DNA of 54,628 nucleotides. Source: Parasteatoda tepidariorum (Eukaryota). Below the pieces are notes generated by a model. That model saw only the letters and a list, made by a program, of their open reading frames with translations. It did not search any database and was not told the DNA's origin. Below are positions 11,850-53,100 of this stretch, in pieces. Position numbers and translations under genes: made by a program. How positions within the stretch are numbered: the stretch's first letter is position 1; every line of letters begins with the position of its first letter. The stretch is taken from NCBI RefSeq assembly GCF_043381705.1, contig NC_092214.1, forward strand, positions 2,558,259 through 2,612,886, written 5' to 3'.

Positions 11850-11985
11850 AATGGTAAACTATTTAAAGTTTATTAGTTTTAATGGAAAAACTGTTTAAAT
11901 TTATTAGTTTTTAAAGGAATAACGTTTAAATTTTATTAATTTCAATGAAATATTGTTTAAATTTTATTAATTTTAATAGAATTGA
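11850..11985. repeat. Minisatellite of about 4 units of roughly 32 bp.
   Basis: The unit aactgtttaaatttattagttttaatgga is reiterated with variants. Confidence 0.6.
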
Positions 11986-12331: not shown

Positions 12332-12740
12332 CAGTGAACAAAAATTAAATGTATCACACTGAATTACTTTTGATCTAATAATTGGATCTTCACATTCTAG
12401 GACAATCTTAATGGTTCAAGGCGCTGTCCACAAATATGCTAATTAAATAGTGTGGACAATATTTTAAGTTACAAAATCAAACACAGAATACTTTCTCTGA
12501 GTAAGCATACTTTTATTTCCATGAATGTGGATTCCTGACTCCCAAAATATAGGGGGTAGCCGCAATCTGGGAAATATGGTCATAATAGTTTGTTTTGGAA
12601 AGCAGTTTAAAGTTTGGACCCCTTAATGCTAGTTTTACTTTTTCCATATTTTCCCATTGCTTTGGAAGTTATCGATGCTATTCAGAAAAACTTAGCTCAG
12701 AATTATTTGAATGCTTATGCTAAGATAATTCTATGTAAAA
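12332..12740 (+). repeat. Copy 1 of a dispersed roughly 300-480 bp repeat family with a Tc1-like terminus (CAGTGC.A-rich..GGACCACCCTGAATAACTTTTGAT...TTGGACCCCTTAATG...).
   Basis: It shares long blocks with the copies at 40297, 42295 and 45145. Examples are ctgaattacttttgatctaat, cccaaaatatagggggtagccgcaatctgggaaatatggtc and agtttggaccccttaatg. It is followed at 12750-12960 by a second partial direct copy. Confidence 0.6.
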
Positions 12741-24243: not shown

Positions 24244-27200
24244 CTAAAAGAAATGAATTAAATTATATTGCTTTGGGAAAGCCATATTCCTTTTTTTTTG
24301 TGTCAGGCACTTCCAAATCAAAATTTGAATTAGCTGAATATAAGCATTTTCCTAACCAGAATTTCCCTTATACTACTATTAATAAAATGCAGTATTATAT
24401 TAATTAATAATTTCACAAATAAACTTAAAATTTAGGTATTTAATGATGTTTCTTGCATAAAAAAATTGACACTAAACAATGAAAAATGATATTGCAAGGC
24501 CCGTGCTAAGGACTTCAAATTATTAGCCATTAAATTAGCCAAATAACAAAAGTATTAGCCAAATTTCAAAAATCTTATCCAAAGGCGAATCTTAACAATT
24601 TCTTATGATTGATTTTTTAACATAGAATACAAGTTGGAATACAAATTTACAATAAATTTAATTATTTTATAAAATGCAATTTAAAATCCAAAATCTTTTT
24701 ACAGTTGAGGAGGTGTAAAAAAGCTATGAATAGGAGAGAGGATAAAAAATATAGATGTTTTATGGTCTTTGAGGGAAAAAATTAGAAAAATGCTAATTTT
24801 TGATAACTTCTCAGACCAGAGCATTAATATAAGGATAAACCTTAGGCAACATTATGTTATTGTCACATTATTGTATATGCTTTTGTCACGAGAAAGCATA
24901 TTTCCTGCAAAAATATTTTGATGATAAAATGCATATTGCTACCTCATAATCTGTTTTATTGCCACAAACTATTGGAAAAATAAGTCACATCATATTGCAT
25001 GATCTGGAAATGAACGTGGTAATCTGTATTTTGCTGTAGTTTGTCACATGCTTACATAATCTCTCCAGTTATTTACATTGTCTAGACTTAATATAATTCT
25101 AATTGGTTGTGTGATGTATCTAGTGGAAATTACTGTAATTGAAAAAAAATAATAATACAGGATTTGTTCAGAAAAATTCTCTTTTGCCCTTTTTTTCAAG
25201 ATTGAGGGGGATATATATTTTTCTTTATGGTAGAAAGAATAATTTGCTTATACTTGTAGTGAATTTACAATTTTATCACATTTGGTGAGGTGGTGAATGC
25301 TTGGCGTGGGCCTTGTATTAATAATGACATATTATGGGATACCTTAGTTTATTATGTAAACACTGGAATAAAGTACCTTTTGACTGTGAATGCAAAAGTT
25401 TATTCTTTTTTATTTTCTACTGAATAATGATATAAATTATCAGACAAAAAATGTACTTTATTTTTAATTAAACTTATTGTTGTGAAAAATAGAATACGCT
25501 GGGGCGGGAAAAAAAATGGCATTTTTTATAGTCTCAATCAAAATTTGTTTCAAGGAACTTAGTATATAAAATGAGTCTAAAAAATATTATACTCATTTTC
25601 CAAAAGTGAGTAGGACATTTTCTCGAACACTTTTTGAGGTAATTATTTGAGTACACGGTATATTACTAAAAATCAATGTATGCTAGTTCTATGTCGAATG
25701 TGAATAAGAAAGTGTCTAAAATGTAAAATCTATATGATATTCACACACATATGCATATTTTTATTTGACACTAACTATTGATATTATTCTTATAATGCAG
25801 TTTTCTTTCTCTGAAGTTTAGTCTAAATTGTTCAGAGGGTAGATTTCAATTGTTTTAATTAATTGTTGTAAAATGAGGCAAAAAAAACATACTTTATCTC
25901 AGCGAATTTTTTTTTTTTTAATTCAGATATTTGACCCTGAAAAATAAAGGAATGGTCACAATCTGAAAAATCTGATCCCAAATCTTTATACTTTCCATCC
26001 CAAATGAGGTTTTAAAGATTTTAATGCAATTTACTTATTTTTTCTTTATATTTTGCTATATATCTCTTGAACTATTTGCCTGACCTTCTAATGTTTTGCA
26101 TTAAATTTAGAAGGTTAAACTGTTTCGTTTTATATGATCACTTTTAATTTCGAAAATTAATACCATTGATTAATAAGCTTGATTTTATTTTAATTAGAAA
26201 TGTAAAATTCAGTTTTTCCTTCTAAAACATGTTCTGTTTTAAAGAATTCTTGTTCGTAAAACTGCAGCATATTTTAGAAATTATATAATATGCAGCATGC
26301 TTAGGATCTTATAATAAGTAATTTTTATCAGAATTTACTATGAGTGTCATAATAACAATAATTTATAAGATAAACTAAGAAGCAACAAAGTTGAGATAAG
26401 GTAACTTTTTTAGCTGCACTTAACTAAACAGATTTTAGCACAGCCAAATTTTTTAAGATTTGGTTTTTTATACTGTTTTATGCTTTATGACATAAAATGT
26501 TTTGTTCATAAATTTTCATTTGATTTTTGATTTCTTTATTTTCATTTTTTATCTGTCTTGTTTACCTTATATTGTCTTATTCGCTTAGAATTTGCCAAAA
26601 ATATCCTATTTAAAGCAGTTAAGTAGTTCAAGGAGCTTGGTCATAAAGACTATCCATTAAGAAACATGGCTATTAAAAAGCCTGTTATTTGATATCCATG
26701 AAAAAATTCATCCCTGAATTGACATAACTGTCAGATGAATGCCAATAAATTGGAAATAAAAGCACTTGATATGAAGCCTTACAATAAAAGTTCAAAATAA
26801 TATTCAATAAAATAGGTATACAATGATCCAATGATGTCCACTAGCCCGACATCTAAGCTTTTAAGTTGAATTGTTTACCTAGATAATACATTGTTTCATC
26901 TTAAACAAGTGCTTAATCATTAGAACAACTTGTTCTACATCCCATCAATATTTATTGTATTTAAAAGTGTTCTTGGTTTGTTGAATAAATAGAATCTTGT
27001 GATATCAGTAAATGGCAAATTTAGTAACACCCAATTACTTGATCAAATGCTTTAGATTTTACTTTTTTAATTAAAATTTCATTTGAATGCACTATTATTG
27101 TCATTGGTCCTATAAATTTCCCTGTTTAAACCTCTCAAGAAATACATAAAAAAAATTGGAATGTTTCATGTATTCAAGAATAGAATTTTCTGCATAGCAA

Positions 27201-27370
27201 AGAGTGTCAATGACTGGTTTTAAAATTTGTTTAGAGATATTTGCTCTACACTATAATTAATTTATAAGTTTTTGAAGATTCCTTGAATTAAAACAATCCC
27301 ATTTTCTATGACATGGTTATTTTATAAATTCAAACAAGTGCGATTAAAAAGTGAAATATTAAATTTTTAC

Positions 27371-28165
27371 CTGTTTTTCATCAGGATTATACATTTTTTC
27401 AATCATTTGAAGCTTGTTGTTCATAAAAGATGCGGTGAAGTTTTTCACTTCTTTCATGCTCTTAAATAAGTTCTGAGAGATTCTTGTGATATTTGAATTT
27501 CTTATGTCCACAAATATATCAGGACTTTGAATGTTAGAAAATCTTGATTCGTCAATGTGTCTTAAATTTTCTCCTTCTAAAATTATTTTTTTTAAAGATT
27601 TAGGTAGGTTTTCATCAAACATTCTTTCTAAATCATTTTCTTGAACATGCAAATGTATTTCTTTTATTCCATGGTTTTTGCTTAGCATTTCAGATATACT
27701 TATATCTTTCTGGGGATAAGTGCTTATTTCTAGTTTTTGCAGTGCTATTAATGGATGAAATACATCTTTTTGAATTTCTTGTATATCAATATTTTTTATA
27801 AAAAGTTGTTGTAATCTTTCCATGTTGCTAAAAGTTGTATTCCACAATGCTTGTATTGGGTTGTCTTGCAAATATAACGATCTTAGTTGTGGTAAATTTG
27901 ACCACAGATCATTGTGTATTGTAGTAAGTAAGTTATTTGAAAAATCCAAAACTTGAATTTTTTGTAAGTTTTCCAGAGCTTCATGCTTTATTGTTTTTAA
28001 CAAGTTTGAACTCAAGTTAAGAAATAAAATGTCACAAGATTTCAGAAAAGGTATATCTTTCAAAGAAGTGTTTGCTAAATTGAGAATTTTTAAGCTATCT
28101 GGAAGAACTTCAGTTATCCACTGGGGTGATTCATTAATGGAATTTTGTGATAAATCTAAATATAT
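27371..28165 (-). CDS. Chaoptin-like LRR protein, second coding exon (265 codons).
   Basis: Acceptor tttatttcag sits on the minus strand at 28175-28166. The exon starts IYLDLSQNSINESPQW... and continues the LRR array. It ends ...MYNPDEKQ, followed by GTAAAA (minus-strand donor at 27370). It joins the first exon in phase 0. Confidence 0.65.
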
Positions 28166-31100
28166 CTGAAATAAAGATGCATGAGTTAGTTAAAACAGAA
28201 ACTAAACAAATATTATAATGCTAAATTCAAAATAAGTTATAAAATATATTCCTAAAATAAGAAAGTAGAAGAATATATTTGTGAATGAAAGTGCTACATA
28301 ATATTGCTGTGTATATTTGTATCTGGTCACAGGATGTGTTAGATACTCCTATGTGCTCTCTGGATACTATTGCATTTTTTCTGTTTATTAGTTAAACTAT
28401 GAGTAAACAAAATAAAAAATAAGAGAATTTTTATTAAAACTTTAGGAAAATTTAAATTACACCTTGCATCCAAAATATCTCTCCCATCAATACGTTGAAA
28501 TTTTTCCTCTTACTCTTTTTTTTTCATTAAAAGCTCTTCTAATATTTTTTAAATTTTCCATATTTTAAAAATAATGAAAAAATTTTCAGTGAAAATTATC
28601 ATTAGTTTTAATTGACTATTTACAGTTATATATTCAATTATAAAAAAAAATTTACAAATTGAACAAAAAAATAACCTTCTGCAAAATAAAATACAAAATA
28701 AATAAATGCACATACAGAATATATTTTAAATTCATGTATATATACAGTTAGACTTCAATGTAATGAACTTCCATTTTGTGAATTTCTCTATTTTGCAATT
28801 TTTTTAGAGGAGCTAAGAACATTTTGGAAATTTCTTCGTAAAAAAACTTCCAAATAACAAAGTGAATTTTCTATTTAACGAACTTTTCTTTAAGATCCAC
28901 TTTCCCTATTTTCCAAAACATTTCAAACTTGTTAGTGCATTTTATGGGGGAAATGACTTTGAATTGATTTTGGCAGCCGCTTTGAGAGAAAGAAGTAAAT
29001 TGCCTTTCCCTTTTTGTTTGCATTTCATACTAGAATCCAAGCCAAAAATCAAGCCAAAAAAGCTGCAACCACAAAAACATTAACTGAATTGGATAGTTTG
29101 GATGGTGTGAAAAATAAAAACAATAATACAGCAATAAATTGTGAGGAAGACGAAGAAGATGGAAATGATGAAGAAATCACCAAACCTTTCTATGATAAAA
29201 TGCTAAAATCATTTGAAGCAATTCAGTAGTAGATAATAATTTACAAGATGAAGGTTATCAGTTGCTGTTTCAATTATGTCTAGTGTTTATGAATTTGAAA
29301 CCTGTTTTGTGTTGTTTAAAGATTTTAAATGGTGATTTTCTATTTAACGAATTTTTATATTACAAGCTTTTTATCGGGATTTAGCGACTTCGTTAAATGA
29401 GGCCGAACTGTATATTCTGATTAAAAATATATAAAACACAATAAAAATTTCAAAATTTGAGGATTTTTAAAATTAAAATAAATTAAATTACATTTTAAGT
29501 CAAAAATGCTGCTTTTAATAATAATTATTTAAATTTTTATGTTTGTTTATTATCGAAATTAAAAATATACTTCTCTTCAAAAAAGCACTATATTTGAAAG
29601 ATAATTACCAACATCATTTTTTTTAACGTACTAATTTCTAAAGCCACTTTGGAAAATATACTGTAAGACTCCTATGTATACTCATATTTGTGTGAAAAAT
29701 CTAGAAAATTTACCTAGTTAACCTAAAGAAAACTGAATTATTAAGAACTTATAAACATTATTATAAAGAATTAATTACAATAAAAAAATTGAAATATTCC
29801 AAGACCTTACATTAATTAAATTAATCAAACTTTTTCCATTACATTTATTTAAGTCAAAATTAGGAAAATTAAATTAAAGCATATTCAATCTGAATTTGTT
29901 TCTAAAGGGATTACAATTTTCTATTAGAACAAATTTGTCACACCACTCTGAACAAAGTTATCCTCAGCCTCAGAAGTTATCTTTTACTGAAAGAGCATTT
30001 TTTTTCCAACAGTGTCTGAAAAGTTGGAAGGTGTGGTGTATCACCGTGGTTTTTAAACTATCATTTACTATCCAACCATGCGAGTGTGAACACGGAGCAC
30101 ATATAATTTAATTTAGACACTTTTTGTGGGTGCAAGCTTAGTAGTTAGCCTGTCTAAGGGGACGAGAGTGTGTCAGATTTAGGAAACAATGCTTAAGTTT
30201 AGAAATAGCATATCTTACATAATTTTCCATATCACAATTTTCTTGGTTATATAACTTTAATTTTTCATTTCATAATTTTCATTTTAATCAATTTTAATTT
30301 TTCCTTTTTGTTCCTGGGAAACAATGAAACCCAATTCAACTTTCATTCACACTAGAGGGGGTCCAACAAGGTATTAAAATCTCTATTCTTTTGTGTCTTT
30401 TCCTGTAATAAATGATCATTTTGCTTTTATTCCTCAATTACTTACTTAAAACAATGTTTGTTTTCATTCTGACAACTCCTTCTCGGTGCACAAATTTTTA
30501 TGGCAATGTGTGTATTTTAAGATTGATCTGTTCCAGACTAATGTTGCCATATTTAGTTGTTAAGCTTAAAGATATATGAAATGGTCTATATAACCCTGGG
30601 TATTCCAGCTATCATTTCATGTGATAATTTGGTCCCAAAGTATTGCTTAAAAAATTTTTCTCGTATTTTTTGAAGATATTTTCTTTGGGTTCTCTTAAAT
30701 TTTTGACTGTTTATATTTTATAATGAGTGTTAATATACTGTAAGATTTATTTATACATAATATGATATGACAAAAGAAAGAAACCATCTAAGTATTTTCA
30801 AACGAGGAGACTTTTATTTGTTCCTTACAGAAAATTTGGCCACCTATCCAATATTTAGTTTTCCAGCACCAGTCTCGTGGATGTCATTAAAAGTTTATGA
30901 CTTAACTGCTGTTTAATAAAAATCCATTTTGCTAAAATTATTATTCTTTTAATGTTATACCCAGCCTCAGCCAATTAGCCCTGTGCTATCTTGCTGTCCA
31001 ATAAAGGTGTGTAAAATCTGAAGGAGAAGTATTCTCATTGTCAATATCTTTCAATTTAGTGCACACAAAGAGATGTTTGTGTTTCATAAATTTTGTATGG

Positions 31101-31313
31101 AAAAATTACTTTTTTCCAACTTTTAAGACTAATAGTAATACAAATATGTACAATAGATATAAAGGTTGACTTACCAAGTTAAGCATAAAGCTGTTTGAAA
31201 AAAAGGGGGGGGGTTCATTTTAATGTTAAATAGATATTATATCTTCTATTTCCATTATTATATCTATAATTTTATATCTAAGCAAGAAATATTACTTTAG
31301 TTTGTATACTTAC

Positions 31314-33908
31314 TAATTTTGGTAAATAATCAGTTTCTCCTGAACTTGTAATTGTTAGCTGATTATTAGCTAGGCTGAGGTATCTGAGGTTCTGAAAGCT
31401 TTTAAAATTACTAAAATTTAAGGATTGTATGAGATTTCCAGCTAGATCAAGAAGTTGTAAACTGTTCTTTAAAGTGAGCAAAGATTCTTGAGGAAATGCT
31501 TCTAAAAAGTTGTAAGATAAGTCTAATTGTTCTATATTTGTCTTAATAAATATATTTTCTGCCAATTCTTCCATACTGTTGTGTGAAGCTGAAAATATTC
31601 TCAGTCTTGATTGCTCATTAAATAAGTTTTCAGGCAATACTGTGATATTGTTAAATGATAAATTTAAAATTTGTAATGATGTAATCCCTTTAAATTCGTT
31701 TTCATCTACGGAATCTATCTTGTTGTTAGAAATAATCAACATTTGTAATTGAGCCATGTTAGCAAAAGCTGATACTGATAAATCTTGTATTAAATTATTA
31801 CTCAAATCTAGACGTATAACTGACTGGCGAATAGGATCAAAATAATTGTTGTCTATGTAAGATATGTTGTTATAGCTGAAATTTATATTCTTAATATTGC
31901 TTGATGTATGAATTACAGAATAATTTCCAGTTAAATTCTGAATGTTGTTATTATTGACATCGACTTTTAATGCAGAAAGCCTACCTACTTGATGAAAAGC
32001 TTCTAAATTGAAACTTAATAGTTTGTTATATGCTAAATTAATATATTGAACGTTTGGAAGATTTTGAAAGGCTTCGTTTTCAATATTCTCTATTAAATTA
32101 CCTTGTAGTTGAATATCAATAATTGAATCCAAATCTAAGAAAGCAGATTTTCTTATACTTTTTATATGATTATCATTCATCTGTAAATAAATTAATTTTC
32201 GTAAATTTCGGATTGTATATGAATTCAATGTACTAATTCTGTTAAAAGCTATTTTCAAATGTTCCACGTCTGGATTGTTAATATCATTAATGAAATTTGG
32301 ATGCAGATCTAGTAATTTATTGTAATTTAGATTCAAATATTTCAAATTCTGAAATGAAATAAAGGATTCATATGGTAGTTGTATTAAACCATTGTCACTC
32401 AAATCTAAATATTCCAATTTATTAAGGATGTTAAATATCTTAAAAGGAAACATAGTCAATTTAAATGCCTTGTGTAAGTTTAATTTTATCAAAGAGTGTC
32501 TGTTATCTTTAAAAGTAGAGTTTTCAATTTTTGTTATGCTGTTATAAGACAAATCAAGTTCTTTTAAACTACTCAATTTATTAAAAGCTCCATTTTCTAT
32601 CACTTTAATGAAACTTTTTGTTATAGATAGCTTTTCAATAGATGATCCAAAATTTCGTAAGTAGTCTTTATCTAGTAGAGATTGCTTCTTGTTAAATAAA
32701 TACTCACGCAAATTGAATAAATTCAAAATAACTTCATTATCAAGGCTTGTCATTTTAGGACCTCTTAAATCTAAGTATTTTAGAGTATTGCTGTATCCTT
32801 TTATGCTGGAAAAATTTATTTCTTTTATTGTATTACCTGCAAGTGATAGTCTCACTAGTTTTGTGAATGGTAAATCTGGAAATTCACCCAGATTGTTAAA
32901 ACTTAAGTCTACTACCTGCATTGAATGAGCAACACTATAAAATGCATTAGGTGTAATTAGGGATATTTTACAATAAGGCATGTATATCTCTGTTACATTG
33001 GTTATTAAAAAAGTATCATTAACTGTTTCTAATGGATTTCCTTTTAAAAATAATCGATTTATATGACTAAATAGTCTAAAACTCTGTGGTGTCAGCTCAG
33101 TCAACAGATTATTTTCTAAATGCAATTCCTCTAAATTAATTCGATTTCTTGTTTCTCGGCCTTCAGATATTGTTGAAATCATGTTATCATTCAAATTTAC
33201 TGTTTTGATATTTTTTAAATTAGCCAGTGCATTCAATGGAATTTGCTGAAGTTGATTTCCCATCAAATTCAAATGCTTCAAGTTATTTAGTCCACTTTGA
33301 AAAGTAATATCATCAATAGTTAGAATTGAGTTATAAGCCAAATTCAAAACCTCAAGTGAAATCATGTTTCTGAATGAATCTGTTTGAATATGCATTAGTG
33401 CATTATTTGTTAAATCCAATAATTTTAGCGTTTTTCCAATGCTTCGAAAATCGTCATTATACAGAATTGAAATGTGATTTTCACTTAAAATTAAACTACT
33501 TAATTTTTCTGAATTTAGTATTGCTTCTTTTGGTATCCTAAATAATTGGTTTTGGCTTAAATCTAACACTGATAAAGTTTTTTCAAGACCTGCCAAAGCA
33601 TTTGAAGGCAAATCAGATAGAAGGTTGCTGTTTATTTGAAGTTTCCACAATCCTGTACCATTCAAACTGTAATCTTCAAGATATTGCAATTTATTATTTT
33701 TCAGACTCATGATATAAATTGCAAATTTATTGAGATGAGGTGGTATAGTCATAAACGGAATATTTTCACAACTAACGGATCCTAAATCGGGACCTCCACT
33801 TGAGCAGGTACATAAAGAGTTAAATGTACATGGTCTGTGTTGTTCTTTTAACCTAGAATCGACGTTAGTGAGGAACAATAAAAAGCATACTTTCTCCAAA
33901 ACTTTCAT
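31314..33908 (-). CDS. Chaoptin-like extracellular leucine-rich-repeat protein, first coding exon (865 codons). It encodes a signal peptide, an LRR N-terminal motif and about 30 LRRs.
   Basis: The ATG at 33908 is immediately preceded by an in-frame TAG and a good acceptor (ttttctcttatag). The product starts MKVLEKVCFLLFLTNV, a signal peptide, followed by CTFNSLCTCS...VSCENIPFMTIP, an LRR N-terminal motif. It then runs through uninterrupted L..L.L..N LRRs. A GTAAGT donor at 31313-31308 follows ...DYLPKL, and the ORF track continues 11 codons past this donor. Confidence 0.75.
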
Positions 33909-34346
33909 CTATAAGAGAAAAATATATTTTAGAAAATGTGTTTGTGTATATACAATAAATAAAGTATAAAATTATTACTGGGAAATTCTATATATTTTTT
34001 AGTGAGTGTGCGATGCAATTTGTTTTTTAACAAAACATTAAATTTGCTATTTTCTTTCCTGAAGCTATGAAATCTTCAATATTTTATTAAGTGTTGTCTT
34101 TACAATCTCTAGATTTTCTAGTGTGCATAAGTGTATATTTCTATGCACATGTATGTTTCTCTCTATTTCTAATTACTATAGTCGAATAGTCTCTGTGAAA
34201 TCAAATTTTAGATCTACAACTGTTTTTTTTTAAAATTTGCTAACTCAGAAACTATTGCTCTCAAATTTTTTTATCTAGTCAGCATTTTTTTTTTTACTTC
34301 ATTGTAAAGAATGTAAATACAAATTTTGTGTTTGCATTTTTTAAAA

Positions 34347-34690
34347 GTCCCGCTGTGAACAGATCGTTAAGACACGGTTCCTAGCAAATCACCGAAGTCA
34401 AGCATCACTGGCTACGGTCAGTGTGCGGGTGGGTGACCACTTGGATCAGTCTGCGTAGGGACCGAGGGTGTGCGGTATTGGTCCTCGTTAAACTGTGCTA
34501 CCGTAAAGTGCTCGACTTCGCTCGCAGGTCGTCAGGGTACCGAAGCGGGGGTGCCATCCCATCTGCAGAGGATCAAAATTGTGATGGCATGTCTTCGGAT
34601 CATCCTCAGGGATGTTTCCCAGACCGTCGCCAATAGCCCATTGTGCAGCTCTAGTGCGATGTAAATTAACAGCAACAACAACATTTTTTA
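34347..34690 (+). mobile_element. 5S-rRNA-derived SINE-like element (or a highly diverged 5S pseudogene): a 5S-like head of about 120 nt, a GC-rich body and an A-rich tail.
   Basis: GGTTCCTAGCAAATCACCGAAGTCAAGCATCACTGGCT...GGGTGGGTGACCACTTGGATCAGTCTGCG aligns with the canonical 5S rRNA internal region. That region reads GGTTCTCGTCCGATCACCGAAATTAAGCAGCGTCGGGC...GGGTGACCGCCTGGGAACACCGCG. It spans the pol III box A / internal element / box C area. There is a roughly 10-nt insertion near the 5' end and about 200 nt of non-5S GC-rich sequence follows. It is therefore not a functional 5S gene. The three overlapping ORFs in the ORF track here are artefacts of the local GC richness. Confidence 0.5.
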
Positions 34691-34849
34691 AAATGTAAAA
34701 ATTTGTAAACTTTTTCAATTACAAAATATAATCATCAAAGAAATATAAATAATTATTAAATATAATTTTTCGCAAGGAATTATCTTTCAAAGATTTTATA
34801 ATTGTATGCAATATTTTTTCAAGTGGCTTAAAAAGTTCTCAATATTTGG

Positions 34850-35000
34850 CAAAACTTGCAAAAAGTTAACATTAAAAATTAAAACTTTCATCTGCTCTCC
34901 TGACCAAACTTTTGGAAACTTATTTCCCAGATTGTGGCAACCCCTCGCCCCATATTTTGAAGGTCAACAGTTCGAATTCTTCAAAAAAAAAATTGTGTTT
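34850..35000 (-). repeat. Short degenerate inverted fragment of the same family.
   Basis: tatttcccagattgtggcaacccctcgccccatattttg is the reverse complement of the family block caaaatatagggggtagccgcaatctgggaaata. Confidence 0.35.
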
Positions 35001-36164
35001 TTTTAAAGGAAAAAAAAAAGTTGTATACAACTTCGTAACCTAAATTATCGTGTGCACTAATCAGTATATTTAAGGTGAGGCCCTCAGACCATTTACATTG
35101 AGTCTTAGTGTATGAAAATCTGATAATAAGATCAAAAGTTATTCAGATTTTCTTTCGATGCAATGTTCATTAATCATTGTGTTTCTTTGAATTCTTGTTT
35201 TGACTTTTGAAATATTTGTTCAAGCTGTAAATTTTAAAATTAGAATCACCTTTTATTGAGTGGAGCACACCACAACTGTGGGCCAGATTGTTGATGATCG
35301 TGGCCCAAACTTCAGAGACTAGTGAGTATCTTAAATATCTTAAAATCTTATTTGCCTTTTCAAAGACTATAATTTTAGCATTGACAACCCTATGCTTCCT
35401 TAATAAAATCTAAACGTTCATGCTTACACTAGATCAAGTTGTAGTACCCTTATTGAAGTCAAATCAATGTGCTAAAATTAGAATTTTTCGTCAAATTTTA
35501 CTTTTTAAATTACTTGTAATTTTTAGTGTTTCCGAAAATAAGATTTTTTATCGATTTTTTTTCCCTTAAAGGAAAGGAAATAAGACAAAGTTGATTGTAT
35601 GTTGAAGTAATATGATATGTGTTTTAAAATTGGAAATTACAAAAAAAAGCAAATCTGCTTTTCAATTTTAAAAAAAAAATTGACATCTACTTTTAATATT
35701 TTTTTAGCTTATCATAAATTAATAAATATAAATTATTCTCTTTGTAATTTTAAAAACAATAAAAAAAAGGTCACGAAAATTTAATGTCAATTTAGCTATA
35801 AGTATATTCGGAGCTTAAAACAGTATGTTCATTCAAAAAAAAAGTTTTTTTTTGAACTTATGCTTATTGTTTCTAGTTTTTAAACTTAACGAACTAAAGG
35901 ACCGCTAATATGACATTATTATAATCTTGATAGTCATTATTCGAACCGTTAACGTTTTCACTTCATATATCTAGCCAAAGAAGTATGAATCTGTAAAATT
36001 TATATTGAAACGAAACCAAGCTTAAATTAAAGAATATGGTATGGTCTTAGACCTAAACAGGGGTGCAAATTTCTTGCCACTGTAACCCAGAAAGACGCCG
36101 TAGAAATTTAATTCATTTCATACCAAATTTTTTTTTAAAAATGCCTATTGAATGTGGATGCGAG

Positions 36165-36520: not shown

Positions 36521-36901
36521 TTTCCTAACTAAATTTAAAGTTTTTTTTTATAAATGTACTTAAAATAAAAAATAAAATATTTTTCAGTTAAAAAAAAATT
36601 TAAATAGTCTCCAGTGGGAATAAGTCGCGGATATTTCATTTACAAGACAAGTGTCCTAATCACTATGTTACACATCCACCTTCAATACAATTTTTTTTTA
36701 TTCCAATATTAAATGAACTTAAACTTTTTGTGTTCATATTTTACCCTAGTGGCCACAGTTGGTAGCACTAATTGTTGAAGTTCTAACTTGGTTCAACTCT
36801 AATAAGAATTTTTATAGATTCATATGCAGGGCCCGATTAAAAGAGTCTTACGTCCTGGGCAAAATACTATTTAAGGGAACCCAACATTTCCCCTGGCTTT
36901 T

Positions 36902-37567
36902 TTGCTTTTATTCATTTTAACAAAATGTTTCCTCTGCTATGGATGGGTGGAGAAATTCAAGATCCGAATTGGCCTAGAAACTCGTACCATATCTGGTAAA
37001 AATACAAGCGTGAACGAAAGGACTGTAAGGGAATGGAAAGAAAAATTTAAATCTTTAATTAAGGAATACAAACCAAAGGATATTTTTAATTGTGATGAAA
37101 CTGGTTTGTTTTTCAGGATGATGCCTAAAAAGACAATGGCATTTAAGGGAGAACTCTGCCACGGTGGAAGAAACAGTAAAGAAAGATTAACCGTTTTATT
37201 ATGTTGTAATGCAAATGCATCAGAAAATACCGATACCGATCTTAGTAATAACGAATGGAAAGTTGTATCCCATGGACTTGTTTCCTTTAATGAATTTATT
37301 GTCTTTGATGATAATCTATTAACAACGGAATTAAGAGACATTGATAACGATGAGAACGTGTCGGATGATACTGACGAGGATGATAAAGTTCCTCCAAATC
37401 ACACAGCAGTACTAGAAGCTTTAGACACTATTCGTGACTATTTACAATTCAATTCTGCTTCTGAAACTCCCTTATCCCATTTATATGAGCTGGAAAAAAC
37501 TGATTTTGAAATACGTCGGCAAAAACAAATACAAACATGTATTAAGGATTATTTTGTAAGAAAATAA
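36902..37567 (+). mobile_element. Tigger/pogo-type (CENP-B-like DDE) transposase-derived ORF, internally deleted but open for 221 aa.
   Basis: The ORF contains ...ISGKNTSVNERTVREWKEKFKSLIKEYKPKDIFNCDETGLFFRMMPKKTMAFKGELCHGGRNSKERLTVLLCCNANA. That is the pogo DDE_1 start, with DETGLF and the ER.Tvl.c.NA block. It then jumps to an acidic C-terminal region (DDTDEDDKVPPNHTAVLEALDTIRDYLQ...) typical of Tigger C-termini. The HTH N-terminus and most of the catalytic core are missing. Confidence 0.6.
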
Positions 37568-38870: not shown

Positions 38871-40296
38871 TAGAGCAGAGCTGAAACACGAAATCCGTTA
38901 CACGTTTATTCACTTATTTGAAATGAACCATATAAAATATCATTTATACACCAACAATAATTTATATAAACAAGGGTAAATTTTATTCTAATGCAATTAA
39001 CCTCAATTTATACTTTAAATCATTAAAATAACAAAACAAAAGTTTTAATACAAAAGTTTCATTAAAAAATTCCATAAAATTTTATTATCAGTAATAAAAG
39101 CTGCTTTCAATAGGAAAAAAAATATTTTTAACAATGGGACAATTTGTTTCCCTAACATTTGGAGAAGGGGGTAGTGTTGAGTGCTAGTTTTTTTAATTGA
39201 AATTATATAGGATGATGAAAGTAATTGTACTAATTAACTTTTTGAGAACTTTTTTTTATGTATTATTTATCTGAGGTTAAGGTATGCATTTTTGAAAATG
39301 TAAAAGCTGAAACTTTGAACACTGCTGATGGAGGAAAAGAATTTATCCGACCATCTCAATTATAATTTATCACTTCTTCGAAGTGTGAACATTTCTGTTT
39401 ATTAATTAAATAATTTTATTTTCCGTTTTAAATATGGCAATGTCGATTTAAAACCAGATAAATTAAACCGGAACAAGATGAGAAACATATTTCACTTAAG
39501 ATTGCTTTAATTTTATTTAACTTTCCACTTTTTTCTTCTTTTTTTCTTTTACAGTTTAGAGGTTTATATTTTGTTAATCGTGAAGATGATCTTTACTGTA
39601 ACTAATGTTAAAGATATTCAGTGAAATGTTTGGTTCGAAGTTATTGCCTTTTTTCAGCATAGAAATCAGAAGCAATTAAAAAGAATTTTTTTTAATTAGC
39701 AAAAAAAGCTTTGACTTTTTCGTATTTTTCACTTTGGAATATTAAGAAAAGTATTACTCTTTTTTAAATAATTTTATCATATATGATTACATAGCTTCAT
39801 AAATACATAAATTTATTTCTCATTCTGTCTGATCAGAGGTTTCAATGGGCAAAATATTCAAGAATGATTTCTTTTCAAAATATAGTTATAATTTTTGGGC
39901 CCTGTCCAGACTGGGGGAAAGGCAAGTTTATTTTTTTAATCGATGTAACTAAAAAAAAATTTTGAATATTTTTTCAATTGTGATTTTTTAAGAAAAAAGC
40001 CTATAATTTCTTTCAATTACCAAACCGCGAGTTAAAAGTTTTAGACTTGAAACTAATAAATAAATTTCATTTCTTTAATGGTTTGTCTTGAAAAGACCTT
40101 CTTAACGATATATAATAGAAATCGTATTCAAGAGCTTTTATAAAATTGGTATTTTATGATTAGTATTATATTTAGGAGAAAAGGGGGGCTACTGTGGACA
40201 TGGAGGGCAAGAGTAGATAACATGAATAGCTTTATCTTTTCTAGTCCATTTTCCTTTGTCAGATGTCGTAGATTGGTAACATTAATGCACAGTGCT

Positions 40297-40780
40297 CAGA
40301 AAAAGGACCACCCTGAATAACTTTTGATTTAATGATTAGATCTGCACGTTCTAGGACTCGTGGGTGTGACCTCACTAAGTAATTGGTGCTGATGATATTT
40401 TATTTTATGTTACGTAATCAGACACAAAAACATACTTTCGCTGAATAAACATACCTTTTTTTTCAACGGATTCGATTTTCTAGGCACCATAATATAGTGG
40501 GTAACCGTAATCGGGAAAATATGGTCTCGATAGTTTGCTCGGAAGAGCGATCCAATGTTTGAACCCCCAAATGTTAATTTTATTTCCTGCGGATTTTGCC
40601 ATAGCTCGAGAGTTTTTTAAGGGAATTGAAAAATTAGTGCACGTAATTATAAAATTCGTTTATCCGAAGGTCATTCCATGCAAAAATAACTTTTAGAGAA
40701 TATTTATTATTTTTTATTCAATAATAGTCGAGAAAATTTTGAATTTCCAGGTATACAGTTTTTTTTTTTGTATCATTTTA
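40297..40780 (+). repeat. Copy of the dispersed Tc1-like repeat family (the longest copy).
   Basis: It starts CAGTGCTCAGAAAAAGGACCACCCTGAATAACTTTTGATTTAATGATTAGATCTGCACGTTCTAGGAC. It then carries ...accataatatagtgggtaaccgtaatcgggaaaatatggtc and ...tttgaacccccaaatgttaatttt. Its tail is shared with the 45145 copy. Confidence 0.6.
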
Positions 40781-42294
40781 AAGTACCTAATTCTACATGG
40801 AAAAATACAAAATTTGAGCGAAATTGGTTGATAAGTTCCTGAGAAATCGAGTTTCATATGTAGGGGAGTGTCGGCCCACTGTCAATTTCATATGTATAGA
40901 ATATTTTTTCAAGTAAATGGGCCATCGGACATGAATTGTTATATTAAAAAAAGATTATTTTCAAAGTTTCAAGTATTTATGCAGCTGGTAACATGGTAAA
41001 CAATAGCTTATGTTGAATACAGTAGTCAAATTTTTAAATTTCTATTTTTTTTAAGTTAAACTATTCTTTTTTTTGGTTTATTCTTTTTGCATTATTTAAT
41101 TAGATGATAAAACAATAGAAACATACAAAAATATCAATTATTACTCAATATTATACAGAAATGTAAGCATTACTCCTTAAGTGGGCGGGGCTACCCGACT
41201 CTCCCCTACGACCTTTTTAAAATTTGATTTCTCAGGATTAACCGATTTCGCTTAGATTTTGTATTTTGCCTTGTGGAAAACTTACGATACTTTGTAATCC
41301 AATTTATGTGAGAACAAGTAACTTGTTTTCCTAAATATATTCGCTAACATGATACATAAATAGCTGAAATGACGGTTAGAGGTGGAGTACAGAAAGTTTT
41401 AGGAAGGGCTCCGGCCAAAATTGAAGGGCTTTGAGGGGCGTAGTTACGGCACTGGTGTCAAAGCATCCTTTTCAACTCGGAAATATCTTGGGGACAGCTA
41501 ATTGCCACCCTATACATTTGCCCTTTATCTGCGAAAAATACTATTTAATAAAATATAAGCCTGACGCTTTTAAATTTCCCTTCTTGGTGGCGACTTCTGT
41601 TACAAAAAAGTGGGAGGTCTAATAAGAGAGAGATTCCTTGATTGACATATACTTTTAAACCAATTACATGATTAGACGATACATCAGTTACTACTAATTT
41701 TCCGCGTACACTAGAAAAAACATTTAAAACTTAAATAGATTGAAACAGTACTACTCTATCTTGACTCAGTATTATATTTTTTTTCTTCATATTCACGTAG
41801 ACTTGGTTTGATTTTAAAAGTATTAATCTTTTTTAAGTTTTAATAATGCAACGAAGCTAGAAAAAGAAGCAAGAACCCCCCAGAGATTCTTCGAAGTCTT
41901 AACGACTGACGTAAAAAATAACAATAAGTTAGTTTAACTTGTGTTCCCCCTTCCCATTTATAGATTATTGAAAATATTGTTTCAACATTATCAGGTTTTT
42001 AAGGCAAGTCAAGTAACTTTAATGAATTGATTTTAAGTAAATTATTTCAACTGCCAATTATGTTTACTTGTCAATAAAAAAAATATCCTAGTTTTCAAAA
42101 TTAATGTGGATAAGGTAGACATATTTTATATAATGAAGTAGGAGTTTAATTTTACTTTAAACGATACGAATAATTTGTTTTTAAGAGGAGCTCGTCTTAA
42201 AATGGCCTACTCTATAGCTCGTCCACTCTATAGCTCTCTATAATATTAATGTTTCTACTCTATAGCTCGTCTTAAAATGGCCAAATTTGACAAA

Positions 42295-42715
42295 CTGTGA
42301 GCAAAATAAAAAGTTAACGCTCAGAATTACTTTTGATCTAATCTAATGATAGTATTTTCACATACTTAATCGTAATAACACGAAGTTATGTTAATTAATT
42401 ATATATTATATAATAACTTAATTATATGTTAATTTATTACTGACATTATTTAAAGTTACGAAATCAGATACAAAAAAGCACTTTCTCAAAATAAGCATTT
42501 TTTAAATTTTTTCGACAGATTTGGTATTTTAACCCTTGAAGTATGGGGGGGGGCACAATCTGAAAATTATTGTACTAATAATTTATACAGGAGAGCGATT
42601 AAAATTTTGGACCCCTTCATGTTAATTTCACGTTTTGCGTATTTCATTATATCTCGAGAAATTGATAAGTGAATCAAAAAGGTTTTTGTTCACATTTATA
42701 AAATTCTTGAAATGA
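42295..42715 (+). repeat. Copy of the same family, left arm of a near-perfect palindrome.
   Basis: It contains aattacttttgatctaat and ggggggggcacaatctgaaaattattgtact. It ends ...ttttggaccccttcatgttaatttcacgttttgcgtatttcattatatctcgagaaattgataag. Confidence 0.6.
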
Positions 42716-43120
42716 AATTATCTTTGGATTAACGAATTTTATAACTATGTACAAAAATCTTCTGATTCGTTAAAAAATTACTCGAGATTCGGCGGAATGC
42801 GCAAAAATATGAAATTTACGTTAAGGGGTCCAAACTTTCGACTGTCCTCTATTTAAACTATTGAGACCATATTTTCCTGATTGCAATTAGCTGATATCCA
42901 TATTTTGAGGGTCAGAATTTCAAATCCGCAGAAATAAAGTTTCAGAGAAAGTGTGTTTTTGTGTATGATTTCGTCATACACAAAATAATTAAAATATATC
43001 GTCTGAATTAATAAACTAGCACATTTAAGATTTGACCCACTAACCCATTGAGTCCTAAAACGGGAAAATCCAATTATTTATTGAAAAGTTATTTAGGATG
43101 TCCACTTTTTTATTTTGTGC
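42716..43120 (-). repeat. Inverted copy of the same family, right arm of the palindrome.
   Basis: Its reverse complement matches the left arm for about 400 bp. The matching blocks are ctcgagattcggcggaatgcgcaaaaatatgaaatttacgttaaggggtccaaa and ctattgagaccatattttcctgattgcaattagctgatatccatattttgagggtc. It ends ...aaaagttatttaggatgtccactttttt, the reverse complement of the family head. Confidence 0.6.
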
Positions 43121-45144
43121 ATCCCTTTCTCAGAAGATATCGAATCGATTTTCAAACTATCTCTATTTGATTTCCCCCCCCCTTCATGTTATGGTGCACA
43201 GTTTTATAAGTTTTAATATTTAAAAAATTTTAAATTTATCTGCTGTAGTTTTTTCTTTATTTTCATGATTAAATTTTTATTTGTATTCCTTTGACAAAAT
43301 AATTACAAATTCTACATTATTTTTGAAACTGAAATTTGCATCGCTATTTTGAATATAATTAAAACCAGTTTAGTATAAATTGAAAAAAAGGTTTCTCAAA
43401 GTTAGCTACTTTAGCAGGCTAATGATTTCTCCATAATTTAATAGCTTTAATTTAATAACCTTTATTTTAAAAACTTTATATTTTATAAATTTTTTAAATT
43501 ACTTTACTATAATGATGCTTTCTTTATTCCTATATTTTCTTTAAATACAAAGCATAAGAAATAGATATTAAAAATGTTGCAATATTGAATAGTGGAGTGA
43601 AAATTAATTAATTATGAAAATTAATTATGAAAATTAATTATCAGTTTTGTGAAGCGCCTATATTTTTCGTTCTAGGTGTGACAAAAATATTTTTGTTTCT
43701 TTTTAGGCCACCTAAAAAACATAATTTTTAAAATTTTTATATTATGTTTAATTTTTTGCAGTTTTGGACTTGTTAAATGTTTGAAAAGGGTCGAAATAAT
43801 AATTGCCATTAATATGGAGATAAATTTTGTATTGCAATTTTTAGGAAACAAATGTAACTTAAATTGTCATCAGACGCAGAGTTTGTTCCAGACACAGTTG
43901 AAATTTTCGGACATAAGGATAGGCAAATAAGGATGTATCACAAATAGATATTTTGATCACTTTCTAGGTAGCCGAAGTGTTCCAAATTCAACCTGTATTC
44001 TATCGACAAAATAAATGACGATTGCTTCCTGTGCACTGAATGCTAAGTTTATCGTCATTTTATCGCTAAAGAGAATTTTTTATTAAACAAAACTCTAAAC
44101 CAAATGAATTTTTTAGCTAAACTCCTTGTAGAAAGCCCTTCTGGGTCTTTAAATGTCTAGTCAGGTCTTGATTGACTTCATTCAAGAGTAAAAAATACCC
44201 AGGTACTATAATGATTCCGTTTTTATACAGTATTGAGATTGTGTTGTATGTTTTTTTTTTATTCTCTATAAAAAATTGTTAAAGTTCGCTGATTTTTTTT
44301 ACATGAATATTAACTTAAGACCCACGGTAAAAAAAATTTCACTTAAATTATAGCAAAAATTTAAAAAGCATATTAAAAGACATTACGGAACAGGGTTATT
44401 TGAATGAACAATTATATTATATTTCGTAGAATTAAAAGGGAAAAAAAATTAGCTTGTAGGTCAGGGAATTTTTTTAAAAATAAAACGCCAGAATTGTCAA
44501 AATTATTTTAGTTCGGCTCTAAGATCATAAAAAATGTGGTTAGCGTTTGAAAACTCTTCAAAGAGTTGATTGAAAAAGTTTGATTCGCACAATTGATAAT
44601 CTGTAAAAGCTGTTTATTTTTGAAATTTTATAATTTTACTTTTGTAAACTTACTTTAAATTTTATCTTAAAAAAAATATTTTTGTTGATACTTTTAATTG
44701 CATTTATGGGGCATCAAAATCTTTTTAAGTGTTTAGGGCCTCTAAGGCTCCTAATCCGGACCTAAAACGAACAACTTTTACTCTTTTTTTTTAGATGAAT
44801 TTTTAAATGATTGCGAATTCATAGAAGTTACTACAGCTATTTCAGTCATTAATTACAGCAGAAAATAGTGATGAAAATAATGTTCTCAAAAGGACTTTAT
44901 GATTTAGTAGAAAATATTACGGATGAGTTCATTTTGTGCCGCAAATTTTTGGGATCTTGTGATAAAATGATCAGTTATTGCTTGTTCCTCTATAATAAAT
45001 TGTTATTCCCTGGACATAATGACCTGTATATAATGACAACATTGCCAGTCATAATATGTAACAACGAACAGTAATTTTTCATTTTCAAGATTTTAAAATT
45101 ATACTTTCAGAAAACAGGTTTAACATCCCTTATGTACAGTGCGA

Positions 45145-45650
45145 AAAAATAAATAAAAAAAAAGGAACACCCTGATTAACTTTTGTTCTAATGATCAGAT
45201 TTTCACGTACTGGAACTCAAACTTAATGGTTCACGTGGGTGTCCTTAAATATGCTAATTAATTAGTGCAGACGATATATTAAGTTACTAAATCAGGCTTA
45301 AAATCGTACTTTTTCTGAATAAGTATAACTTTTATTCGACGGATTTTTATTCTTGATCCGCAAAATATAGGAGGTAGCTGCAGTCCGAATAACTTGGTCA
45401 GGAGAGTGGGCAAAAGTTTGGACCCCTTGATGTTAATTTTGCATATTTCGCCCCATCTCAACAACATTTAAAGCGATTTGGAAAATTTGTGTTTACAATT
45501 ATAGAATTCGTTTATTCAACGATAATTCAATGACACAAACAATAATTACTTATTAATTTTTAGTATTTAAATTAATAGTAGTAGAAAATTTTTTGAATTG
45601 TAAGGTATACAAGTTTTTACAGAATTTTAAAGAATGTATTTTTATAAGCC
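45145..45650 (+). repeat. Copy of the same family. It is preceded by TA (atgTA|CAGTGCGAAAAAATAAAT...).
   Basis: It carries GGAACACCCTGATTAACTTTTGTTCTAATGATCAGATTTTCACGTACTGGAAC. It then has ...ccgcaaaatataggaggtagctgcagtccgaataacttggtc and ...aagtttggaccccttgatgttaattttgc. Its tail is shared with the 40297 copy. Confidence 0.6.
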
Positions 45651-46289
45651 AAAATTTGTAATGTAATTGCATAAAATTCTTTTAATAGCGTTAAATTCTT
45701 TTTTAATATTTTTGAATTCTTTAAAATGTCAAAATGCATTCAAAACTAAAGAATATCAAACTGATATTTAAAAAGAAACAAAAAAAAAAAATTATTATTC
45801 GAAAACAAATTTGTCGAAAAAAATATAAAGATGGGGGAAAAGTGACGATTTTTTATCACATCACGTAACACAAAAGTTAATTTTATAGTAAATTAACTCT
45901 AATGTTCTCGACAGAAAATCAAAAATAGATAACGATTTTATTAAGCAACATAAATGCAAATTAAATACTTTAATAAAGGAATTGTATGGGGCTCAAATGA
46001 TTGAAGAAAAAAAAAAAAAAAAAACATTATAGCTCTCAATAGGATTCAACATTCAGTTCGGATTCAGTTTAGCATATTTTTAGCTTTAGGGCATTTGTAT
46101 TTAGTGAATTATAAGAAATTTTTTAAATTTTAAAATGGTTTTTAAAGCTACAGAAAAATTAGAAACAAAGTTTAAAAACAGTTAACAGCTTAAAAAAACC
46201 TCTTCCCGTGTCATACTAATATTGTATAAATAATATTAAGATTTAAAAGAAAAATGTGGAAATAACTAGTAACAACTGATAAAAAAAAG

Positions 46290-50100: not shown

Positions 50101-53100
50101 AACCAAATTCTCATATTTAAAACAAATTAAAATATGTTTTTTTTTTCAAAAAAAAAAATCATAATAATAAAGAATCGCTATAGTTAAGTTTATAACCAAA
50201 AATGAGCCTTTTAAAACAACAAATTTCAACTTCGTAGCTGTGCAATTTCATTTCTACTGCCAACAGAGCGAGCGCCGTGCATTGTTTTTTTGCAACAAGT
50301 TTAACAGTTTATAAATCTCGGACAAATTATAAATTCTTTTATATCATGTTAATCCTTATACAGTTTTCAACTAACAACTTCGTGATTTCAAGTCTCTTAG
50401 CCAAAACAGAGGTAGGTGGTAGAGGCTCTCATAACTTTTTTAATATAGGGAAAACTTTATTTCATAGCTGCAAACAATTTATCATGTTTTAAGCTCGAAG
50501 TTTAAATTCTGATTCGTTTTAAGCATAAATGTTTACTTTCATTTTGAGAGATATTTTTAGTTTTTCTATAATTATTACCGATAAAATCCATTTCTTATGA
50601 AATATTATTTTTTCTTTATTTAATTTAAATGTTTATGTTTTTTTTTTGGCATGTTTCATATTTTTAAGGATAGATATACCTAATAAATCGGATTTTAAAC
50701 TATGACTTTTTTTAAAAAATTCGATTTATCGGGAACCATTGCTGCCATGATAGGAAATCGCGTGGTAGGACTGAGGCTTTCATCATTGAAGACGTTCTTC
50801 CATTGCTTGTACCAAATACAAATCTACCAGAAAAGAGGCCCTTCGCTAAAATCACCGGAAGGTTTCTTTCCACCTAAGTGGCCAAAAAAGCTGAAGTATT
50901 TATTTTCAATACGCTTAACGCTTCACAATAGTGCGGAAAATAAGAAAATTATGTAAAAAGAAGAAAATTGATGTATAAAAAAATTAATATCATCCGGTTG
51001 TGTATCACATGTAAAATTTATAAAAACTGAAAAATGTGAAATTTTTTTTAAAATTTGTTTAAAAATGTACAATCGACATACTGTTGTTTCTTTTGCTTAT
51101 TGTATGATTTAAAAAAGCGAAATTAAATTTCATTATCAAGTCAATGCCTACTGATTTCACAATGCTCTTAAAAAACAAGAATTATATTAAGTTTCTCGCC
51201 TTTAACCGTCGTGGCTAACAAACCGCTATATTCCAAAACCACTTAAAATTGTGCAATCGATGTGCCATAGCTTCTTATGTTTATTTAAGGGTTTAAACAG
51301 TGAAATAAATAAAAATATTATTTTAAAGCGATACCAGTCATATGATATGTTGGAAAATTTCTTGCTTTATAACGTCGTAGCTTATCAGCTGCCACATCAA
51401 AGAAAAAGAGGGTTTTGAATATCCTACAACTGAAGCCTGACAGAATTTCTTTCACAACAAATTATGGAAACACTGTTAACAAGAGAAAATCAAATTCCCA
51501 ATTGAAACAAACGTGTCAATTTTTCGTTTTATTCAATTTGCGTTTTTAGTCACATTTTTAGAACTAATTAAGCAATTCAAAAGAAAAAAATTCACACACT
51601 TATAAAAGCCATTCACCCAAAGATAGTTTCATGCAAAAAATAAATTTTAATAATTATTTAATTTAATTGTGGATGAAAAAAATTTTGAATTATGAAGTGT
51701 AAATTTTTTTTATACCATATTAATCTACGCATTTTTCTATTGCAAAATCTAAAGTTTCAACAGTTTTCATTTGGTAGAAGTTGAGAAAAATTAAAATAAA
51801 TTATTTTTAAAAAAGTAATTTGGTGACAATGAAAAAATATTTAAATGAGACTTGCGTGCGCGTAGAGTAAAATTTCATTAATATTTTTTTCGCTAATAAC
51901 CAATTGCTAATCCTTTTTTTAAATTATAAAATACGATGTTTCTTTTTTAGTCTTCTGAAAATTTGTTCGTAATTTAATAAAGAGATTTGAATAAAACATT
52001 TTATTGAATAAGAACATTATATTAACGGATGTTGAATTCAATAACAGCCTGTTTCTGATAGAATGTGGTTATACGTCAGCTTTTTTTTATTTGTTTGTTC
52101 TTTCAATGATTAATACAATTTCAATAATATGCAAACGTATGCATAGATTTGGAATAATATGTTTATCAATTTCTCCAATATATATTTTATAATTATTAAT
52201 ACGAATACGTAGTCAAAATTTTTAAGCATCTTAAAATTTCTCAACATCTTATAAATCGACTTAATCTTAAAATAAATTTGTTAATTATCTATCTGCTCCT
52301 GTTTCGCAGAATTATTTTTCCAACTGTTTAATTAAATTTTAACCTTTCTCAAAATCTTCTTACCTCGTATATTATTTTTCCATTAATATACTAATAAACT
52401 GTTTTAGTACTTTAACTCAAGTTTTCCTTTAAAATAAAATTCCTTTTTGAATTATTGATAAGTTTTTATTGAAAGAAAACTTAGAATTATTGCCAGCTAG
52501 CTGAGAATTAAATCATGCTAAGAAGTTAAAAATACTCTGCTGATCGATGTTATTCGATGCAGAACAGCTGACTATTTACTAAGCATACTATTGTTTTCGA
52601 AAAATGAAGATAAATTATTGGTTGTCTTTTTTTATTGCTTCTTATTTATTTGAGTAATGAAAAGTAAATGCGTATGTGTGCACAGCAAAAAAATACAACA
52701 GTTTGCTTTGTTTTTTTAAATGAACAAAAAACTATGGACATGCAATTTTATTTTGACGTTCAAAGTTATTCTTGTCCGCTGACTTTAAGAAAGTTGCCCT
52801 TTTCTTTTAAAAAGTTGAAAATATTTGCTTAAACAGTTGTTAATATTATTTCTCAACTTCAGCACAATTCAAAAAAATGTTGCTATAACAGAAAAATGCT
52901 CGATATGCCGTGTTTTGTTAAACACCTACTAAAATAAAAAATTGTAAAAAGATTCCAAAACCGTGCTATTTTTAGAATCATCTCAAAAATTGTTCTTTTT
53001 CTAACATTAGAATTTTTTCTACTTTAATAACATATAATAATTTTAACACACGTTTTGAAGAAATCATGAATACAAATTTTGATCTAATATTTTGTAATGA

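Follow-up and report, generated by a model that had tools for sequence, protein, structure and literature searches.

CAGTG is a common start of class II inverted repeats, and in some elements these repeats are long. Tc7, described in 1997 by Rezsohazy et al., is reported to be 921 bp in length and to have inverted repeats of 345 bp, which match Tc1 over their outermost 38 bp. In Drosophila, the arms of FB elements are built from short tandem subrepeats. Known hpRNA loci that give rise to endogenous siRNAs also have long arms, which are highly complementary.

Long-TIR or wholly foldback MITE families are well documented, including CeleTc1/Tc7, Tc6, PALTA, PALTTAA and Galileo, and are described as possessing unusually long TIRs or "essentially foldback structures" (PMC3814204). 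A different route to inverted pairs is found in Penelope-like retroelements (PLEs), whose insertions are highly 5'-truncated and form partial tandems, with an inverted 5'-truncated copy often adjoining the 5' end. PLEs occur in spiders, and PLEs of the Naiad type do not possess a hammerhead (PMC8557442).

Here I analyse a repeat family found in 54,628 nucleotides of the Parasteatoda tepidariorum genome (contig NC_092214.1; hereafter referred to as the window), which has a G+C content of 28.5%. Two copies of this family form an inverted pair at 42.28–43.13 kb (the 42.3-kb pair). This pair is an old, decayed insertion of a lineage-specific family, and is an ordinary transposon relic that is explained by known biology. 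As in Tc7/CeleTc1, PALTA, PALTTAA and the Cele families of Caenorhabditis elegans, and as in Galileo, the elements are non-coding and consist almost entirely of two long inverted arms, with the recognised ends facing outward, little or no unique middle, and many dispersed copies. Unlike in the Tc7-like elements, the terminus is ATGnnCAGTGC rather than TA followed directly by CAGTGC, the arms are longer (~600 bp), there are solo units that share an inner boundary, no autonomous relative could be linked to the family, and the host is an arachnid. The family shares with Drosophila FB the long inverted arms, able to form the whole element, and the variation in arm length between copies, but its arms contain no tandem subrepeats.

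The likeness to PLE architecture (a pLTR with an inverted 5'-truncated copy) lies in having one end that is defined and inner ends that are ragged or truncated, the outward pairs, the partial extra copies, and the presence of such elements in spiders (PMC8557442). In contrast to canonical PLEs, the spider copies possess no hammerhead, and neither remnants of an RT or GIY-YIG nor a tail extension could be recognised. Finally, arthropod hpRNA loci are likewise inverted repeats that can fold into a long hairpin if transcribed, but the arms of the 42.3-kb pair are 62% identical, and its helices average 5.5 bp.

The repeat family, its copies and its terminus

Family copies were located in the 54.6-kb window with a profile built from the copies (nhmmer) and with consensus blast. 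Seven long copies were found, as well as three to four fragments, in agreement with a first-pass annotation of this DNA, which had counted at least seven copies in 54 kb. Similarity between the copies has a sharp start at the outer end and tails off ∼580–620 bp further in, at a boundary common to every copy that reaches this far; the full family unit is therefore ∼600 bp long. Inner truncation is seen for the two arms that meet at 42.7 kb (at positions 441 and 463) and for the left arm at 12.3 kb (position 495), while the outer end is kept by all.

The solo copy at residues 40266–40890 of the window (+ strand) is full-length, with the terminus TTAATGCA followed by CAGTGC (at 40290), and both a partner arm and a short TIR went undetected in it. 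In the solo copy at 34680–35177 (- strand), the inner end abuts a GC-rich, 5S-rRNA-like block (34345–34660, 56–57% G+C versus a background of 28%), which is single-copy in the window. Within this block, 34351–34461 (+ strand, 111 bp) gives a full-length Rfam 5S rRNA match that is sub-threshold (19.1 bits versus a gathering score of 38), and the block probably represents either a SINE that derives from 5S or a 5S pseudogene that has decayed. Internal fragments of the family are located at 25853–26196 (+ strand, consensus positions 163–489) and at 51527–51757 (+ strand, consensus positions 346–576), the latter sharing its inner boundary with the long copies. A partner-arm stub in the solo copies, centred at consensus position ∼517, was hinted at by weak complementarity of the consensus to itself, and was rejected in a cross-copy test (z ≤ 2.2). 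It was also considered that the single unit is an ordinary MITE, with the short TIRs that are apparent by eye at two inner boundaries, and this was rejected too (P ≥ 0.07).

Pairwise identity between copies is 54–70%, and their K2P divergence from the consensus is 21–32%, with 47% for the most decayed copy; the family is therefore old. It is also non-coding, with no ORFs in the copies and no Pfam matches in the adjacent open frames. ARAGORN detected no tRNA-like head in the family copies, and no Rfam family matched them at its gathering score, with only generic hairpin matches up to an E value of 1. A SINE origin was rejected, as the copies show no tRNA, 5S or 7SL similarity. No tandem or direct subrepeat families were identified inside the arms, and comparison of the consensus to itself gave only weak, AT-rich matches.

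The family is specific to this arachnid lineage. The orthologous 29–30-kb loci of Nephila pilipes and Stegodyphus dumicola do not contain it, and have only the gene exons. A search of metagenomes with the best-conserved 20-mer returned four chance matches, without family similarity, and a broader pattern matched prokaryotic genomes once, by chance, and had no match in viral contigs.

Four of the seven copies, at 12613, 42606, 42823 (- strand) and 45417, contain the unaltered 12-mer TTTGGACCCCTT, for which 0.1 matches are expected by chance and which has been retained although the copies are ∼20–25% diverged per site. It may correspond to a slowly evolving or once-functional site, for example a putative protein-binding site.

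The outer end of the family reads ATGnnCAGTGC, with CAGTGA in one copy and degenerate versions in others. The copies had been described as starting with CAGTGC; this hexamer is exact in only two of the seven (40290 and 45137), and similarity extends at least 5 nt further out. As for the Tc1 label attached to the family, CAGTG is indeed part of the terminus, but is not at its very end, and no Tc1/mariner transposase domain was identified among the scanned open-frame pieces of at least 75 aa in the window. TA is found exactly beside the conserved end in two of the seven termini, which is close to the background of AT-rich sequence in such heavily decayed copies. TTAA is likewise exact at two of seven termini (40282–40285 and the 35.1-kb copy), with a mean match of 2.1 of 4 positions, versus ∼1.4 expected from base composition. 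The TA target-site duplications that the first-pass annotation proposed to look for are thus not demonstrable, the copies being too decayed. Among duplications flanking the solo units, the best was the 9-mer TGGTAACAT (P = 0.037), located ∼100 bp past the similarity boundary, and the others were not significant. The Tc1 assignment is therefore not established, because it relies on a 5–6-nt motif that is exact in two of seven copies, target-site duplications cannot be demonstrated, and no partner transposase was identified in the window.

The family terminus is carried by no other element in the window. Fragments of a piggyBac-type transposase (PF13843) are present at 5953–6787 (- strand), and are not associated with any family copy. 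A pogo/Tigger fragment, whose homologues carry PF03221 and PF03184, is located between two copies, at 36875–37564 (+ strand); it was considered as a partner, and rejected since it does not have matching ends. A copia-type gag (PF14223) is found at 5157–5558 (+ strand), and a weak retroviral-type protease match at 2890–3132 (- strand). Further TA-flanked CAGTG motifs, at 14173 (+ strand, TACAGTGCAGGTTGCAGG...) and 36078 (- strand, ...GCCACTGTA), might be the ends of unrelated Tc1/pogo-type elements.

Geometry, divergence and folding of the inverted pairs

The 42.3-kb pair had initially been read as a near-perfect palindrome of ∼800 bp. The inverted arrangement is confirmed: when 42.28–43.13 kb is aligned to its own reverse complement, the match spans 889 gapped columns (E = 1e-58), with 63% identity and 88 gap positions. 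It is however far from near-perfect, as the arms are 62–67% identical, and identity well below ∼80% had been set beforehand as refuting such a palindrome. Identity is 62% over the 391 core alignment columns and 67% over the best block of 277 bp; indels are many, and perfect complementarity never extends over more than 12 nt.

The left arm (42285–42712, + strand) corresponds to an nhmmer match at 42276–42717 to profile positions 6–441, with 70% identity in the consensus blast. Its outer terminus is degenerate (CAAACTGTGAGC, at ∼42291), and its inner end is truncated at consensus position ∼441. The right arm (42712–43132, - strand) corresponds to an nhmmer match at 43132–42701 to profile positions 17–463, with 76% identity in the consensus blast; its outer terminus starts with ATGCAC at ∼43122, and its inner end is truncated at consensus position ∼463, nearly the same position as in the left arm. 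The two copies abut at ∼42712, which is also the symmetry centre in the arm-to-arm alignment, and the absence of a spacer reported previously therefore holds. On either side, the similarity between the arms reaches precisely to the family terminus and no further (-4 to 840). The two arms also show the largest exclusive indel signal (3 events in 33 columns).

Two short repeats are found around this pair. The exact 13-mer CCCCTTCATGTTA is present at 42612–42624, in the best-conserved block of the left arm, and in the same orientation at 43179–43191, just beyond the right-arm terminus, where it is preceded by a C-run and followed by the terminus-like ATGGTGCACAGT. This hinted at an extra decayed copy adjoining the palindrome, a possibility that was rejected, as there is no further family similarity around 43179–43191. 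Directly left of the left terminus is a local direct repeat (42189–42223 and 42255–42282) of CTCTATAGCTCGTC, extended by TTAAAATGGCC, which is absent beside all other family copies.

The presence of a second inverted pair of the same family, at 12.3–13.5 kb, was also borne out. Its left arm (12327–12780, + strand) covers consensus positions 25–495, with the terminus TTGTTCAGTGA at 12327. Its right arm (12907–13530, - strand) reaches the inner boundary of the unit (consensus position ∼644), with the terminus ATGGTTCAGCT at 13514; at 66% identity to the consensus, it has diverged more than any other copy. The two arms are 58–62% identical, and their longest perfectly complementary run is 14 nt. 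A spacer of ∼350 bp had been proposed between them, but this is in fact family sequence: a partial extra copy at 12729–12914 (+ strand, consensus positions 202–370, 69% identity, E = 2.5e-18) fills most of it, and the right arm really starts at 12907. The two pairs had further been assigned opposite orientations, head-to-head and tail-to-tail; both are actually + then -, with the defined terminus facing outward.

A third locus is formed by the full-length copy at 45116–45743 (+ strand), which has an exact TA followed by CAGTGC (from 45137). It is accompanied by partner-arm remnants at 45701–45875 (- strand), corresponding to consensus positions 566–463 and 251–168. These remnants (68.5% identity over 108 bp, E = 8.6e-6 for the whole window) were recovered in two independent searches, one using the consensus and the other the left arm of the 42.3-kb pair, and the self reverse-complement z of the locus is ∼2.4. 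They would be what is left of a third outward-facing pair with the 45.1-kb copy, now mostly lost. Both here and at 12.3 kb the arms are unequal, with one full-length and the other shorter.

Thus the two clear pairs and the remnant pair are all + then -, with the defined terminus outward, and no inward-facing or tandem pairs are found among the family copies in the window. In a simulation where seven copies were given random places and orientations in 54.6 kb, at least two outward-facing pairs with a gap of ≤400 bp were obtained in 0.18% of 100,000 runs, and with a gap of ≤150 bp in 0.025%. Since the probability of chance pairing is this low (p ∼ 0.002), I consider with good confidence that each pair is one transposon insertion unit. 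The earlier proposal of a composite, foldback-type unit, rather than chance neighbours, survives on these grounds and on those of the third locus with its partner-arm remnants.

Similarity between the arms of each clear pair ends exactly at the family terminus, and the sequences that flank the two arms are unrelated. Within a pair, the arms resemble each other no more than unrelated copies do (62% identity, compared to a range of 54–70%), and there is no excess of compensating change between them; the arms have not co-evolved. In shared derived sites, pair arms fall in the upper third of all copy pairs and are not outliers, and in both clear pairs the most decayed arm has its own partner as nearest relative. 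Because pair arms are no more alike than unrelated copies, sequence comparison rules out recent duplication, gene conversion and selection for pairing. Their divergence is as expected for arms that were identical at insertion, and then decayed independently.

The 857-nt region of the 42.3-kb pair still folds as one long hairpin (RNA z = -11.3 and DNA z = -7.6, versus shuffled sequence), predicted to have 257 arm-to-arm pairs in 47 helices. The region had been proposed as a long perfect hairpin, and hence as a source of siRNAs and a hotspot of replication instability. This does not hold: the mean helix length is 5.5 bp, with none of 19 bp or longer, and the divergence of the arms removes the replication-instability argument, which applies to perfect palindromes. 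In the 12.3-kb pair, which looks older, two helices of 20–21 bp are predicted. A sub-threshold match to the Rfam family MIR7533, a long-hairpin miRNA precursor model, was obtained (48 bits versus a gathering score of 230), and reflects generic hairpin shape only. The pairs would have been near-perfect when first inserted, and may have had siRNA or instability effects at that time. In their present state of decay, the copies are not credible as sources of siRNAs or of palindrome-driven instability.

Gene context

A chaoptin-like LRR gene is located between 23.9 and 33.9 kb on the - strand (exons 23938–24273, 27368–28171 and 31287–33920), and is 66% identical to the chaoptin of Nephila pilipes, and 63% identical to a chaoptin-like protein of Stegodyphus dumicola. 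TROVE/TEP1-like exons are present on the + strand (7918–8082, 11253–11429 and 15964–16119), in the same order as in Stegodyphus and Nephila. In Stegodyphus dumicola, chaoptin is found inside the TEP1-like gene call, and the relative arrangement is the same in Nephila pilipes; as far as these exon matches indicate, the nested or neighbouring chaoptin/TEP1-like gene pair is conserved across spiders.

The 12.3–13.5-kb pair lies between TEP1-like exons, and is therefore intronic. Upstream of it, the TEP1-like intron also contains four tandem copies of a 31-nt AT-rich unit (11846–11970), with 71–74% identity to the reference copy. The 42.3-kb pair is found 8.4 kb upstream of chaoptin; within the chaoptin/TEP1-like arrangement, its location is probably either a large intron or an intergenic stretch.

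Origin and significance of the pairs

The explanation that I favour, and to which I give about an even chance, is that the family is a foldback (long-TIR), non-autonomous DNA transposon, with a class II mechanism. In such an element, two ∼600-bp arms with the common terminus ATGnnCAGTGC would face outward, with little or no unique middle, and the unit would be moved as a whole, by cut and paste, through recognition of its two identical ends by a trans-acting transposase. After insertion, neutral decay would have brought the copies to their present distance of ∼21–32% from the consensus (47% for the most decayed), and the palindrome centres would have undergone deletion and rearrangement, with sequence lost symmetrically at 42.7 kb, a part duplicated at 12.8 kb, and most of one arm gone at 45.8 kb. 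I infer both the cut-and-paste mechanism and the class II assignment, for which the candidate superfamilies are Tc1/mariner (TA) or a TTAA-targeting group such as piggyBac. The CAGTG-containing terminus counts in favour of a foldback DNA transposon, and the near-equal truncation of the 42.3-kb arms (441 and 463) is as expected from a deletion centred on the palindrome. Counting against it, two full-length solo copies (40266–40890 and 34680–35177) and the 51.5-kb fragment do not extend past the inner boundary that the copies share, and show neither a partner-arm stub (z ≤ 2.2) nor a short TIR (P ≥ 0.07); the foldback model must therefore assume repeated clean loss of a whole arm. The unequal arms at 12.3 kb and 45.1 kb, the position of CAGTG inside the outermost end, the lack of an autonomous partner with the family terminus in the window, the failure to recover additional copies from the collections searched, and the exact TA and TTAA at only two of seven termini each were also counted against it.

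Several of these difficulties would be resolved if the family were instead the 3' part of a PLE, or a non-autonomous element that a PLE mobilises, with the CAGTG end as its 3' end. Solo copies would then be simple insertions, and each pair would have been made in a single integration event. This accommodates the one defined outer end, which the truncated arms (441, 463 and 495, versus ∼600) all keep, the combination of a full-length and a shorter arm at 12.3 kb and 45.1 kb, the extra partial copy within the 12.3–13.5-kb pair, and the existence of solo units that lack a TIR and share an inner boundary. However, no hammerhead was detected, whether up to an E value of 1 in Rfam scans of four copies (34000–35300 and 40150–43300) or at gathering score in the whole window; no copy has a conserved CUGANGA...GAAA core, and the ORFs and open-frame pieces of at least 75 aa that were scanned in the window include no remnant of an RT or a GIY-YIG endonuclease. 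The near-equal truncation at 42.7 kb would have to be a coincidence (roughly 7%), the extra partial copy (consensus positions 202–370) is without the 3' end and so is not a PLE-type head-to-tail tandem, and the 45.8-kb partner remnant is without the 3' end that it should retain. I regard a PLE origin as unlikely, although a serious contender, and with the evidence weighed together it is placed behind the foldback transposon because long-TIR MITEs are much commoner. It is rather improbable, but conceivable, that the family represents an undescribed arachnid element that normally integrates as an inverted dimer, either as a foldback transposon with arms of unusual length (∼600 bp) or as a short non-autonomous Penelope-like parasite, and whose intronic TEP1-like copies once gave long dsRNA that fed siRNA production.

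The remaining explanations do without a dimeric insertion unit, or invoke a function for it. Two independent insertions of a self-mobile unit, by chance or through a self-targeting preference, would agree with the existence of solo units, and with pair arms that differ as much as unrelated copies do (62% versus 54–70%). But chance pairing has a p of ∼0.002, insertion into an existing copy would split it rather than give two inner-truncated, abutting arms, and the same outward geometry is found in three of three cases, with opposite or tandem pairs not seen, which makes this explanation very unlikely. I consider marginally less probable still the inverted duplication of a solo copy in place, for example by template switching or by repair of a hairpin-capped break. 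Such an event would account for the solo copies and for the symmetric centre at 42712; it is argued against by similarity that stops exactly at the family terminus on both sides of both clear pairs, with unrelated flanks, as the boundary of the duplicated segment would have to match the element end in two or three independent events. Finally, a maintained function for the pairs as hairpin-RNA loci, transcribed from host-gene introns to give endogenous siRNA or miRNA, could be suspected from the 42.3-kb region folding far better than shuffled sequence, from the position of the 12.3-kb pair between conserved TEP1-like exons, where it would probably be transcribed, and from the sub-threshold match to the miRNA precursor model (48 bits). 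This is nonetheless the least credible of the proposals, and extremely improbable, with arms no more complementary than unrelated copies and no excess compensating change, 42.3-kb helices that average 5.5 bp with none reaching 19 bp, longest complementary runs of 12 nt (42.3 kb) and 14 nt (12.3–13.5 kb), and a family that is absent from the orthologous loci of two other spiders.

Beyond annotation, the significance of these pairs is small. They illustrate that palindromes recognised by eye in AT-rich repeats need their identity to be measured before hairpin biology is invoked. Spider repeat catalogues are poorly curated, and a model of this family would help repeat maskers not to call such pairs as two elements, or as assembly artefacts. 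If characterised genome-wide, the family would add to these catalogues either a long-armed inverted-repeat transposon or a rare, short Penelope-dependent element.
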